Assembly: GCA_024704765.1 (NCBI GenBank)
Contig: JAKMXF010000210.1
Coordinates: 592,121-656,120, forward strand
Direction: 5' to 3'
Origin: Oopsacas minuta
Lineage: Eukaryota; Animalia; Porifera
Length of the DNA: 64,000 bases
In this document: positions 24,855 to 35,294 of the stretch, piece after piece
Layout: each line of letters begins with the position of its first letter
Numbering within the stretch: the first letter of the stretch is position 1
Translations under genes and position numbers: made by a program
The notes under the pieces: model-generated
Databases searched by the model: none
Told to the model about the DNA's origin: nothing
What the model saw: only the letters and a program-made list of their open reading frames with translations

Positions 24855-25727
24855 TCAATGCCAGTTAAGAACATTGACGTGACCGTATTGGTCCCCTACT
24901 AGTAGATACAAGTGAGTGGACTTGGAGGAGGGGGAGGGGTAGATTTTCGCGTGGGTAACGGGGGACTTGCATCTGTACTCTCCAGTCTGTTCTAGAGTCA
25001 AGTTTTGATTCTGTGTAGAGAGGGACCAGAATTTAACTTTAGTGTCCATACCACATGAGATGAGCTGATTGTTTGACAACAACAGAGCTGTAATTTTCTT
25101 GTCATGAAGTTTGAATCTATTAAACTCATTACTATCATCTTCTGTAAAGGCCACAGCTGTACCTGTTGAATCTCCGATTATTTTGAATCTTTGGTAGATA
25201 ACAAAATGTGTGGGGAATGCTCTCTTAGGATATTTAGCACTTCTACTCTTCTTTGACTTATCTTCTGTTTCTGTATAGAACCCCTCTATGCTAGGAGTAC
25301 TGAATGTATTGGTGAGAGTGTTGTTGAACCCTATGACAGCTAGCTTCTTGTCCATGCTAAGCAAGTAGAGATCTTGGTTGTGGAAACTCATAGACATTAC
25401 CCAATCTTTGAATCCTGGATCAAGTATAGTAAGCTGAGGTAGTTTTCCTGCTTCTATTGCAGACATATCGTAAACTATTATTTTCCCAGACCAGTAGCCA
25501 ACCATCAGCTGACTCTTACTGCTGAGATATCCTAGTGTCGTGATTGAACCCATCGTCACTTCCTGCACCGACCGACGTATCCTGGGGTACCCCTGATTGG
25601 GATTGTACCCCCAGCAAATCAGCTTGGAGTCCTCTCCGGCTGTGCAGAAGCACTTGTCTGTAGGATAACAACTAACTGTAGGAGCCCTTTCGTGTCCAGT
25701 TAAGCTGTGTATCTTTTTGAGTATTAG
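24855..25727 (-). CDS. TEP1: TEP1 orthologue, exon 15 (terminal WD40 repeats, stop TAA at 24855-24857)
   Basis: 52-nt intron upstream. Acceptor TGCTTTAG|. The 15 exons sum to 7881 nt (2627 codons, 2626 aa) with all junction phases consistent. Confidence 0.75.
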   Translation of the reverse strand, partial: LILKKIHSLTGHERAPTVSCYPTDKCFCTAGEDSKLICWGYNPNQGYPRIRRSVQEVTMGSITTLGYLSSKSQLMVGYWSGKIIVYDMSAIEAGKLPQLTILDPGFKDWVMSMSFHNQDLYLLSMDKKLAVIGFNNTLTNTFSTPSIEGFYTETEDKSKKSRSAKYPKRAFPTHFVIYQRFKIIGDSTGTAVAFTEDDSNEFNRFKLHDKKITALLLSNNQLISCGMDTKVKFWSLSTQNQNLTLEQTGEYRCKSPVTHAKIYPSPSSKSTHLYLLVGDQYGHVNVLNWH

Positions 25728-25779
25728 CTAAAGCAAAATTCAATAATTACGTATATTAATTCTGAAGTAATTAGCTCAC

Positions 25780-26229
25780 ATTGTTAGGAGATCGCGTAGA
25801 AGTTCCTACTCTCCATGATACATCCCATAATGATACAGCTGTTTCCCGTGAAGTCATAATAATTCTGTTTCCTGTTGGAGAGATTGACAGAGAAGAGATA
25901 GGAGCATTATGGCAATGGAATGACTCATAAGGATTCTCTTGATCCAATTCTGGTTGCCATAGTTTGACACTAGTATCCATTGAAGAGGTTATGAAGTGGT
26001 TGTTGGGTGTAGTAGCTAGTGACACAATCCTGTCTCCATGACCCGTTATGCTACAAATCTCATTAGCAGTGAAAGGCTGCCATAACTTTAAACTCCCATC
26101 ATCAGATGCTGTAGCTACTTTTATATCTTCCAATCTGATTGTCTTCCTCTTTCTAGATGGATCATTCTCCTCATCATCATCATCTGCCCAATCGTATCTC
26201 CATCCTTGAGATTCAGTGTCCTGTTTAAC
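25780..26229 (-). CDS. TEP1: TEP1 orthologue, exon 14 (WD40)
   Basis: 54-nt intron upstream. Donor AAT|GTGAGC. Confidence 0.7.
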
Positions 26230-26283
26230 CTACTTAACAGGATTAATACAACTCTAATACAATAAGTTATACGGGGCATGTAC

Positions 26284-26601
26284 CTTAGATTGTCTCGTTA
26301 GAGTTTCAGAGCTAGATGCCATGTGAATGTCACACGAATTGACACGTTGTTTATGACAATATAGAGTAGTGATCTCCACCCCTCTATGAGTCCATATCTT
26401 GACTGTACCATCCAAACAAGCAGAACCGACGACTCCATTAGTAAACACTACTTCGTTAATAGAGCTGGTGTGACCTATAAAACTGCCTTTCTCCTTTGCA
26501 TCCTTTGCTTCTTTAACATTCCACATTTTGAGAGTGAAGTCCTGAGATCCTGTAATAACGAAGTCTCCAGAGTCTGAGTAAGCGCAGCAGCTTATCCAAT
26601 C
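26284..26601 (-). CDS. TEP1: TEP1 orthologue, exon 13 (WD40)
   Basis: 68-nt intron upstream. Donor AAG|GTACAT. Confidence 0.7.
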
Positions 26602-26669
26602 CTATCGTATACTCGCATCAAATATATTTATATATTTATAGCTAACAACATTAGTTACATTATACACAC

Positions 26670-27018
26670 CTTATGTCCTGCGTCAATACATTTCATAACT
26701 TTATGGTTAAGTGTGTCCCAGATAATGATATTACAATCCTGACTAACTGACACCAGCTTCATCCCGTCAGGAGAGAAGCATACTCCTGTGACAATTGACA
26801 CGTGTCCTCTCAGAACTGCATCAGGTAGAGATACCTCCCCTTTTAGCTTCTTTCCTCGAACGTCACTACTCCATAGACAAACAGTGTAATCAGCTGCGCC
26901 TGTAGCGATGTGGTGCAGATTCCAAGCCAAACAGTAGACTCCTGCTTCATGGGATTTTAATATTTTAGTGTTTTTCCCTGTTTCTGTGTCATATGCCATC
27001 ACGACGCCATCATCATAA
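26670..27018 (-). CDS. TEP1: TEP1 orthologue, exon 12 (WD40), first exon after the 1694-nt intron
   Basis: Acceptor TAATTCAG| at 27019/27018. Phase 2 from exon 11 gives …CVVG|YDDGVVMAYDTETG…. Donor AAG|GTGTGT. Confidence 0.75.
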
Positions 27019-27075
27019 CTGAATTAATTAGACATTATAAATAACTGTAATGTATAAATAATTATAATTAGAGAT

Positions 27076-32935: not shown

Positions 32936-32989
32936 CTACAAGTACACACATGAATACTATGTATACCAGCTCTATTTTGAGTAACTTAC

Positions 32990-33385
32990 TTCCTTAACTG
33001 TCCTTGGGGTACCCATCCCTTTGAAAGCAGTGCACGGTACATCTAATGCTTTAGACACACAACATAATACAATAGTTACACCAGGTATAGGCTGTATGTT
33101 GAATTTAGTAGCAATCTTAACTGCTGTGTCAAGAGCATCTCTCAATCGTTTAACAACATCTTTATCAACTCTGCTATATTTCTCTAGATCTTTGTTGTAT
33201 TGTATATCTGCTTTGGCTATCTGTTTGGGGGTAGGTCCCCTCTGCATACGTCCTCCCCTTCCCCCTCTACCTCCTCTACCTCCCCTACCACCAGTACTCG
33301 GGAGATAGTCTTTGATTCTAATATCTCTAGCTGAGGCCACATTAGCTTCTAAACTCTCTTTCTTCTTCTCTACCTCTTCTAACGC
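32990..33385 (-). CDS. TEP1: TEP1 orthologue, exon 4 (RGG-repeat linker and start of vWA-like region)
   Basis: 71-nt intron upstream. (GGRGGR)n tract. Donor GAA|GTAAGT. Confidence 0.7.
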
Positions 33386-33456
33386 CTAGTATAATTATAG
33401 ATGATAAGTACTCAGCCCGTAATATAACTCCTCCTCTAGCAATAGGTTATATGTAC

Positions 33457-33785
33457 CTGGTAAGCAGAGAAGAATCTGAATGGGAATTGTCTACTATTAG
33501 TAACTGCATACTCATCAGTTAACTTCTTTATAACCCAGCTGAAGTACTTAGGCTGTACTCCAGCTAGTAATAGATTCCTCATATTACGTAACATAGCCAT
33601 GAATGGTAGCTTATTATGGTCAATAAGCTCCTCCCAAACTTTAGCCTTGTTCCCTCGTGTGGATATTTGAGTCTCCCAGGTTTCAGGGACAGGAAGTCTC
33701 ATCCGTTTTCCAGCTTTATCCTCATCCCACATTCCAATGAGGCCTGCTCTACGGAACGCTTCTGGATCCTCTGGATACCTCTTTC
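33457..33785 (-). CDS. TEP1: TEP1 orthologue, exon 3 (TROVE core)
   Basis: 56-nt intron upstream. LPFMAMLRNMRNLL and …RQFPFRFFSAYQ match the Ro60/TEP1 TROVE motifs (PLTALLRNLGKMT, ARIHPFHILIALETY). Donor CAG|GTACAT. Confidence 0.75.
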
Positions 33786-33841
33786 CTATATAATCATAAA
33801 GTAAATGATATTATCTATGTATTAGCTAGTTGTAACGTTAC

Positions 33842-34084
33842 CTAGTAGTGACATTACTGGTTCCACTGGCTTGCATATATGTAGCTTTCTGATCAGCTGT
33901 TTGAGAGTGAATGACAGTTGCTGCATCTCATCTATTGTGACTGAGTAGTTCTCATCTAATTGTATCTTACCCCATTCTTCTTCTGAGTTCCATCCATCAT
34001 CAGAACTACTATCACTATATGTTGTGGCATCATAGCTATCTAGCTCGTCATCACTTGACTCACTGCTAGAATCGAATAAGTTAC
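33842..34084 (-). CDS. TEP1: TEP1 orthologue, exon 2 (TROVE)
   Basis: Acceptor AAACTTAG| after a 144-nt intron. Donor CTAG|GTAACG. Phases are consistent. Confidence 0.7.
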
Positions 34085-34228
34085 CTAAGTTTTCTCTAAA
34101 GAATATTTGGTAAAATATGGGTTTAATAATAAGATGATCGTTGTGTGGTATAACTTACTTCGATCCTGGTGATACAGAGCGCTTCCTCTCTTTTTGTTCG
34201 GTGGGAAATCCCAGACGCTGAGGCTTAC

Positions 34229-35294
34229 CAGCTTTCTTGTTTTCTCGCTTCTTCCTATTCTTTGCTTTATCTTTGTTATACTTTGCCAGCTGATAGTTGT
34301 CAAAATCCTGAAACTTAGTCATCATAACCTTCCTTAGAGCTACAGGTAGGCTCTTGAACTTTATCCCTGAGTCACATAGTGTCTGATATAACTCTGCTAC
34401 TTCTATCCAGTCAGAGGGGAGACGGATACAGGTAGTGTAATATCGCTTGAGATAAGGTCTACAGCTGTGGAGCATTGATGCGAATGCGAGTAGGAAATTA
34501 GAAGGGGTTCTGAGATTCAGTTCTTGTCTCGAATAGAGAACTGATTTCAAAACGAATTCTGGATCATAGAAAGCTACACGACTAGCTATGTACATCAGAA
34601 CCAATCGTCCATGGTTCTTGGGATCTTTGTAGTTAGGACCTCCAATTAGTGCTGCAGCCATTCCATGCAAGAGTTGTCTTTTTGCGTTAATGATATCATC
34701 AGAAGCTTTGTGTACTCCTCCTGTTAGTGACATTGATAGTTCTATTGTTGGATCTGGAAATCCAAGGATAGTCTCTTGCTCTATCTGCTCTTGAGCTAGA
34801 GTGTATAGGGGGAGATCCTCGGTAGCACAACCTAGGAAAGGGATGACCCCTCCATCCTCCTCTCCAACCAGTTTACGGGGGACACCAGGATCCTGTTTCT
34901 GTAAGGAGGTAGTGCGAAGTTTGGAGATGCTAGAAAACTCTGTGGGCTTATAAGAAGTAGTAGTTCGTGTTGATAAACTAGACAAGTTTTTGGAGGAGAG
35001 AGATCCGGTCAGAGAAGTAGAAGTAGAAGTAGAAGTAGAAGTACCCTTTGATAGAGAGCTGTATTTCCCTGCTGAGCTGCTGAGGAGAGATGGCCGGGCA
35101 TGGGGCATGAGAGAAGAGCCGGATGCACGAGAAGGCCCTAAATCTGAGGACGTTCGTAGACTACTGGTTAGTTTGAGTGAGCTGTGTGTGTGTAGTGATG
35201 AAGTTCTGGAAGAGGTGAGAGAGGATTTTGATTCTAACTTCTTGGAAGTTAGAGACGAGGAACTGAGACTAGATTTTGTGTTGAAACTCGCCAT
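34229..35294 (-). CDS. TEP1: TEP1 (telomerase/vault-associated protein 1) orthologue, exon 1: S/T-rich N-terminus and start of TROVE domain
   Basis: ATG at 35294. Donor GCTG|GTAAGC. The TROVE-like region starts here (…LVLMYIASRVAFYDPEF…). Confidence 0.75.
35011..35043. repeat. (GAAGTA)5 hexamer repeat inside TEP1 exon 1 (encodes an alternating S/T tract on the minus strand)
   Basis: Direct read of gaagtagaagtagaagtagaagtagaagta. Confidence 0.9.

Follow-up and report, generated by a model that had tools for sequence, protein, structure and literature searches.

A probable single TEP1 gene with an iPGM gene nested in its intron 11 in the glass sponge Oopsacas minuta

Human TEP1, also called vault protein p240, carries its domains in a fixed series from a TROVE module to WD40 propellers, and the same order is found in a minus-strand gene of the glass sponge Oopsacas minuta, at positions 24855-35294 of the 64,000-nucleotide (nt) stretch analysed here (GenBank assembly GCA_024704765.1, contig JAKMXF010000210.1, positions 592,121 to 656,120), hereafter the window. 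This locus is very probably a single, intact and selectively constrained TEP1 orthologue of 15 exons and 2653 amino acids (aa), whose intron 11 hosts, on the opposite strand, a gene for 2,3-bisphosphoglycerate-independent phosphoglycerate mutase (iPGM). Its closest full-length relatives are the TEP1 proteins of demosponges, namely Amphimedon queenslandica (P0076) and Ephydatia (Em0009g1018a, P0016), which are 40-44% identical to it and have the same architecture. Human and vertebrate TEP1 begin with TEP1_N repeats, whereas the O. minuta N-terminus is a low-complexity region rich in serine and threonine.

Other described systems have only part of this architecture in common with the sponge protein. 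Ro60 (TROVE2) has the TROVE ring and the vWA module, but it is a protein of ~540 aa without the TIR-like, NACHT and WD40 parts, and its sequence similarity to O. minuta TEP1 is marginal. NWD1, NWD2 and NPHP3 possess the same core of DUF4062, NACHT and helical domains, with or without WD40 repeats, and lack the TROVE/vWA module. DUF4062 is a TIR-like NADase, and human TEP1 is reported to need E1008 for its hydrolysis of NAD+ and NADP+, also within reconstituted vaults; R908 and R976 add to the activity, and R954 is an active-site residue (bioRxiv 10.64898/2026.05.01.722283, 10.64898/2026.09.04.749371). Purified human NWD1, NWD2 and NPHP3 reportedly showed no NADase activity, unlike TEP1. Bacterial defence proteins of the DUF4062/NIR kind (Swarozyc, Avs-NIR, Vulcan and Vesta) have an effector homologous to this TIR-like NADase, including its catalytic Glu, which in many cases is joined to STAND NTPases; these proteins belong to prokaryotic abortive-infection systems and carry other sensor domains.

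Gene model and exon junctions

Six-frame analysis of window positions 24000-36500 yielded open segments on the minus strand that could be chained from 35324 to 24858 with a break at 28712-27019, in which the only long frame was a 512-aa open reading frame (ORF) on the plus strand (27076..28614). Junctions were set by tblastn with full-length homologues and by direct reading of the junction letters. A greedy chain of the longest ORFs, with GT-AG introns of up to 130 nt, was rejected in favour of these homology-guided junctions, having produced ten spurious mini-exons through the antisense strand of iPGM and overrun the true stop.

The resulting gene runs on the minus strand from an ATG at 35294 to a TGA at 24857-24855, and its 15 exons comprise 7962 nt including the stop codon, with no in-frame stop across 7959 nt. 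All 14 introns are of the GT-AG type and every phase is consistent; 13 of them measure 52-71 nt, and intron 11 measures 1694 nt. An earlier sequence-only reading of the same DNA had arrived at exactly these ends, this exon number and consistent phases. Its exon total of 7881 nt (2626 aa) is 81 nt shorter than the present one, and the agreement that it drew with the length of human TEP1 (2627 aa) was not reproduced, an agreement that carries no weight in any case. It had also given all introns as 51-71 nt, which holds for the 13 short ones and fails for intron 11 with the iPGM gene that the reading had missed; a long intron was already implied by its own figures, a span of 10440 nt less 7881 nt of exon, though it was unmentioned there. 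The use it proposed for the introns, as a training set for splice predictors, is accordingly valid for the 13 short introns and not for intron 11. The features of the model are as follows, in order of transcription.

Exon 1: 34159..35294, minus strand, aa 1-378; start codon, Ser/Thr-rich N-terminus and first part of TROVE; donor AA|GTAAGT
Exon 2: 33842..34095, minus strand, aa 379-463; acidic and Ser-rich insert inside TROVE; preceded by intron 1 of 63 nt
Exon 3: 33457..33785, minus strand, aa 464-573; best-conserved TROVE core, 72-74% identity to demosponge TEP1
Exon 4: 32990..33385, minus strand, aa 574-705; last part of TROVE, an RGG repeat and the beginning of the vWA-like domain
Exon 5: 32250..32935, minus strand, aa 706-933; vWA-like domain (DUF5920 match), then the beginning of DUF4062
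Exon 6: 31821..32184, minus strand, aa 934-1055; core of the DUF4062 TIR-like NADase domain, with the catalytic Glu1026 at 31910-31908
Exon 7: 31506..31764, minus strand, aa 1056-1141; C-terminal part of the TIR-like domain
Exon 8: 30397..31445, minus strand, aa 1142-1491; NACHT-type P-loop NTPase
Exon 9: 29740..30330, minus strand, aa 1492-1688; APAF1-like helical domain (APAF1_C match)
Exon 10: 29555..29678, minus strand, aa 1689-1729; first WD repeat
Exon 11: 28713..29496, minus strand, aa 1730-1990; first WD40 propeller, ending in mid-blade at GG|GTAAGT
Intron 11: 27019..28712, minus strand, 1694 nt, phase 2; host of iPGM; unspliced it reads GGG TAA, an instant stop
Exon 12: 26670..27018, minus strand, aa 1991-2107; completes the split WD blade (..CVVG|YDDGVVMAYD..) and holds Met1998 (26999-26997)
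Exon 13: 26284..26601, minus strand, aa 2108-2213; second, TEP1-specific propeller; junctions identical to those of KAI6655230.1
Exon 14: 25780..26229, minus strand, aa 2214-2363; acidic insert and WD repeats
Exon 15: 24855..25727, minus strand, aa 2364-2653 and TGA; C-terminal TEP1-specific propeller

The junctions were compared with those of the corresponding loci in two other glass-sponge assemblies, L001 (ENA ERZ25071281) and L002 (ENA ERZ20067936), whose iPGM proteins are 86% and 81% identical to that of O. minuta, respectively. In a three-way genomic alignment, GT and AG occur at orthologous positions for introns 2-14, with intron lengths that differ by species, and identity is 0.63-0.85 in exons versus 0.35-0.72 in the short introns. 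Intron 5 (32249-32185) is precisely missing in L001, a clean absence that confirms its junction much as a cDNA would. The position of the TEP1 stop is common to all three assemblies, and the start codon with its upstream context is common to two of them (O. minuta and L001).

Domain architecture, identity and proposed function

Pfam and fold searches agree on the order TROVE, vWA-like, DUF4062, NACHT P-loop and WD40, as had been read from the sequence earlier. The Pfam matches are these.

TROVE (PF05731): aa 193-675, 332.5 bits with a cut-off of 23, E = 6e-99, profile positions 7-442 of 442, exons 1-4
DUF5920: aa 766-875, 38.2 bits with a cut-off of 27
DUF4062 (PF13271): aa 915-1004, 50.7 bits with a cut-off of 24.7
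AAA_16: aa 1159-1307, 34.2 bits with a cut-off of 32.6
NACHT: aa 1182-1350, 23.1 bits, under the cut-off of 26.7
APAF1_C: aa 1513-1637, 36.6 bits with a cut-off of 22.8
Beta-prop_TEP1_2nd (PF25047): aa 1986-2198, 224.5 bits with a cut-off of 89
Beta-prop_TEP1_C (PF25048): aa 2571-2652, 130.2 bits with a cut-off of 32

In addition, NPHP3_N gave a sub-threshold match. The Walker A motif GKPGSGKS at aa 1187 (31311-31288) and the Walker B motif VIILDG at aa 1278 are both intact. At least 13 canonical WD-repeat ends were counted, in keeping with the more than 10 repeats of the earlier reading. The protein has three WD40 propellers, and for two of them a TEP1-specific family scores above its curated cut-off. 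The Ser/Thr-rich N-terminus described in that reading is likewise borne out, Ser and Thr making up 45% of aa 1-150, a stretch of low complexity.

The region after TROVE gave only noise when a sequence profile was searched against PDB, and no canonical DxSxS motif of a metal ion-dependent adhesion site (MIDAS) is visible by eye in the vWA-like domain. An AlphaFold2 model of aa 676-905 (mean predicted local distance difference test score, pLDDT, of 76) found as its best Foldseek match in PDB the vWA domain of Ro60 (E = 2.7e-5, probability 1.0), followed by vWF A1, TFIIH p44 and MIDAS domains. On this model, a predicted vWA-like domain directly follows TROVE. A (GGR)4-5 or RGG repeat, STGGRGGRGGRGGRGGRMQRG (~33290-33240, aa ~620-640, exon 4), separates the TROVE core from the vWA-like domain. 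RGG boxes typically serve for RNA binding or as sites of arginine methylation.

A homology search with a 1575-aa query returned several hundred full-length TEP1 proteins with 38-44% identity over 82-99% of the query, and every one of the named best matches is a 'telomerase protein component 1'. Likewise, tblastn with TEP1 homologues was collinear from TROVE through the C-terminus, with identity of up to 40-44%. The pattern is not a product of chance, because TROVE reaches E = 6e-99 and the collinear TEP1 matches of 40-44% identity extend over the full length. Judged from these full-length collinear best matches, the protein is an orthologue of TEP1 and not a paralogue, and the earlier identification as an intact TEP1 orthologue is upheld by TROVE, the TEP1-specific propellers, the match to the solved human TEP1 domain given below, the named best matches and the comparison with the two assemblies. 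The rarity of TEP1 in invertebrates, which the same reading had stressed, was overstated: homologues are found in sponges, Trichoplax (placozoans), molluscs, annelids, nemerteans, echinoderms, hemichordates, amphioxus (cephalochordates) and horseshoe crab (chelicerates). TEP1 orthologues are thus widespread in non-model invertebrates, and the O. minuta gene is an expected, mis-annotated member of them; part of its added value is that the gene model of a published genome is corrected.

The DUF4062 domain matches the solved TIR-like domain of human TEP1 (PDB 11gz_A) with E = 3.9e-52. Human E1008 corresponds to E1026 and human R976 to R991 in O. minuta, and both residues are invariant in 122 TEP1 sequences. 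The TIR-like enzyme module appears to be conserved throughout these 122 animal sequences, which range from those of sponges and placozoans to the human one. At a time when TEP1 is being recognised as a TIR-like NADase in vaults, O. minuta adds a hexactinellid member in which the NADase catalytic residue is intact. By homology, O. minuta TEP1 would be a TROVE-type small-RNA-binding, STAND/NLR-like ATPase, for which we infer RNA binding, vault association and NADase activity. On the best-supported mechanism, that of TEP1, the TROVE ring and the vWA-like domain may bind a small RNA polymerase III transcript (vault RNA in vertebrates), the NACHT P-loop, the APAF1-like helical domain and the WD40 propellers may drive nucleotide-dependent assembly and scaffolding, and the TIR-like domain would consume NAD+ when concentrated. 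Sequences of MVP have been reported from sponges in general (PMC3762200).

One gene or two, and other alternatives

The public annotation of O. minuta was produced by BRAKER 1.9 and Augustus with RNA-seq hints (PMC10280926). In this annotation, exons 12-15 from Met1998 onwards (656 aa; 26999-24855) correspond exactly to KAI6655230.1, 'hypothetical protein LOD99_2518', and this exact match provides independent support for three TEP1 junctions. The full 2653-aa protein is absent from the protein collection by exact-sequence look-up, and no O. minuta TEP1 protein at 100% identity was seen in the homology searches, in which KAI6655230.1 is masked by a cluster that has a 168-aa fragment from a relative as its representative. 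The annotation therefore splits TEP1 at the intron that bears iPGM; its N-terminal part is presumably LOD99_2520 (KAI6655232.1), as suggested by the tag numbering only. The split would arise because the gene predictor cannot nest genes and iPGM sits in intron 11. Augustus in its default settings is not known to place a gene within an intron of an opposite-strand gene.

Both comparison assemblies present the same gene order as O. minuta: SLC26 on the plus strand, the 3' half of TEP1 on the minus strand, iPGM on the plus strand, the 5' half of TEP1 on the minus strand and a REJ/TIG gene on the plus strand. Moreover, the GTAAGT donor and CAG acceptor of intron 11 are found at orthologous positions in both. 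In place of Met1998, the annotated start, L001 has Ile and L002 has Leu, and the six codons that precede this position (YDDG[IV]V) are conserved up to the acceptor. In the spliced product of exons 11 and 12 one WD blade is restored (..CVVG|YDDGVVMAYD..), several propeller profiles run across the junction at aa 1990/1991, and a TEP1 homologue, P0018, aligns from aa 1981 to 2026 with window positions 28796 to 26963, collinear over intron 11. From these comparisons we conclude that a single gene, in all likelihood functional, spans intron 11.

Several results weigh against a single, intact and functional TEP1 gene. An annotation that had RNA-seq hints leaves its halves unjoined, and the splice between exons 11 and 12 is one that we infer from comparison and homology only. 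The NACHT profile stays under its cut-off, and TEP1_N repeats gave no Pfam match at E <= 0.01 in the N-terminus. Two arginines involved in the NADase activity or the active site of human TEP1 are replaced, R908 by L923 and R954 by Q969, at positions where 108 of the 122 TEP1 sequences have Arg or Lys and 103 of the 122 have Lys or Arg, respectively. Lastly, an Rfam scan of the window found no match to vault, Y or telomerase RNA.

Among the alternatives, the one that fares best, itself very unlikely, holds that there are two genes, of which one extends from TROVE to WD40 and ends at GGG TAA, and the other is the independent 656-aa WD40 gene LOD99_2518, with iPGM between them. It draws on KAI6655230.1 being a separate model in the RNA-seq-hinted annotation, on the immediate stop that follows when the exon 11 donor is read through, and on the locus-tag numbering, which has room for a separate N-terminal model, LOD99_2520. 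However, the immediate stop is the automatic outcome of a phase 2 GTAAGT donor, and the split is the artefact to be expected of Augustus, given its default behaviour as noted above. The presumed start of the second gene is not conserved, as opposed to the codons upstream of it, which are kept to the conserved CAG acceptor. In addition, the junction rebuilds a single WD blade, propeller families and full-length TEP1 homologues are collinear across it, and the TEP1-specific C-terminal propeller, found elsewhere on one chain with TROVE, is part of the C-terminal piece.

TEP1 is under purifying selection: compared with L001, at a synonymous divergence (dS) of ~1.3, the ratio of nonsynonymous to synonymous divergence (dN/dS) amounts to 0.077 in exons 1-11 and to 0.066 in exons 12-15, values that also speak for a single gene across intron 11. 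A decaying relic or pseudogene, whose open frames would have survived by chance, is hence even less credible than two genes. It could appeal to the replaced active-site arginines and to a gene model that comes from genomic DNA alone, but the frame is free of stops over its 7959 nt, dN/dS is ~0.07 against a relative at dS ~1.3, exon indels in the three-way alignment are mostly multiples of three (in nearly all exons), and the catalytic Glu and the Walker A and B motifs are intact. Least plausible of all, to the point of being negligible, is an NWD1- or NWD2-like NACHT-WD40 paralogue, which would account for the shared DUF4062-NACHT-helical-WD40 core but not for a strong TROVE (332 bits, exons 1-4, the domain by which the sequence-only reading had proposed to tell TEP1 from an NWD1-like paralogue) and a vWA-like domain N-terminal of DUF4062, unlike the NWD1/NWD2 architecture, nor for TEP1-specific propeller families above their cut-offs and named best matches that are all TEP1 and collinear over the full length.

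With TEP1 read as one gene, the public annotation is corrected, in that a conserved animal gene of 2653 aa has been shown in pieces, at least the last 656 aa of which are labelled 'hypothetical protein'. The correction bears on a genome paper that headlines the loss of core metazoan genes, and in which TEP1, telomerase, vaults and nested genes are unmentioned (PMC10280926). The TEP1-iPGM locus offers a worked example of a nested gene that breaks automated models.

The nested iPGM gene, possible intron turnover and neighbourhood

The gene nested in TEP1 intron 11 is described by a single line.

iPGM (2,3-bisphosphoglycerate-independent phosphoglycerate mutase): 27076..28614, plus strand, 512 aa, complete and intronless, within TEP1 intron 11

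Its protein covers the full Pfam profiles Metalloenzyme (7.5e-79) and iPGM_N (7.1e-72) and matches O. minuta KAI6655231.1 at 100% identity. The next matches are 81-86% identical and come from ENA assemblies including L001 and L002; corals follow at ~65%. Because relatives at 81-86% and then corals are next in line, the gene is, by its sequence affinities, of metazoan type and not a bacterial transfer. It occupies 1539 of the 1694 nt of intron 11 (91%), and its ATG lies 57 nt from the TEP1 acceptor. With so little intron upstream of the ATG, any longer promoter must overlap coding exons of TEP1; TATA-like motifs are present within the intron, 20-40 nt upstream of the ATG, and no canonical AATAAA was found downstream of the gene. 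iPGM is nested likewise in L001 and L002 and is absent from the two demosponge TEP1 loci examined (L003, L004), so that the host-nested pair, as judged from these assemblies, is conserved in glass sponges. This conserved pair is part of the added value of the locus, as is a hint of wholesale intron turnover in the host.

In demosponges, TEP1 is encoded by one continuous ORF, of 2736 aa in Amphimedon (L003 5001-13211, GL345487.1) and of 2395 aa in L004 (5001-12188), whereas the glass-sponge gene has 14 introns and is itself host to iPGM. ORC3, on the opposite strand, hosts the Amphimedon gene in one of its introns; next to the L004 locus, too, there is an ORC winged-helix fragment. TEP1 has 55 exons in Trichoplax (L005), 48 in the starfish Acanthaster (L006) and 15 in O. 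minuta; the human gene has ~55. Of about 50 intron positions, Trichoplax and starfish have 24 exactly in common, and 33-36 if a shift of 1-2 alignment columns is allowed, which implies that the ancestral animal TEP1 was intron-rich. Among the 14 O. minuta introns, no more than 1-2 fall on these shared positions, about the number expected by chance, and an ancestral origin of the O. minuta introns was for the most part rejected. A possible history, advanced here with some reserve, is that TEP1 lost all of its introns in a retrogene-like manner in an early sponge lineage, and that hexactinellids then gained short introns de novo. If this were true, iPGM would sit in a newly gained intron; the nesting itself has been kept over a divergence of dS > 1.

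Even among glass sponges the intron set is not uniform. Besides the lack of intron 5 in L001, an intron of 55 nt in L001 and 69 nt in L002 lies within exon 11 (after 29349) and is absent from O. minuta, and a 66-nt intron within exon 8 (after 31063) occurs in L002 only.

Upstream of TEP1, the window contains a gene in divergent orientation.

TIG/IPT, REJ and EGF-like gene with a C-terminal zf-MYND: 35599-40956, plus strand, a single ORF of 1785 aa

This REJ/TIG ORF begins 305 nt upstream of the TEP1 ATG, adjoins TEP1 in L001 and L002 as well, and in its exact 1785-aa form differs from the annotated GenBank protein. The SLC26 ORF near TEP1 is KAI6655229.1, and a RING ORF at 41092 is KAI6655234.1 (LOD99_2522). 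Across the 64-kb window there are 24 ORFs of at least 200 aa, up to 1785 aa in length, nearly all on the plus strand and intronless in appearance. Those of at least 200 aa on the minus strand are TEP1 exons and one 282-aa ORF at 63068-63916, and TEP1 is thus a multi-exon gene of the minus strand that lies across an array of co-oriented plus-strand genes.

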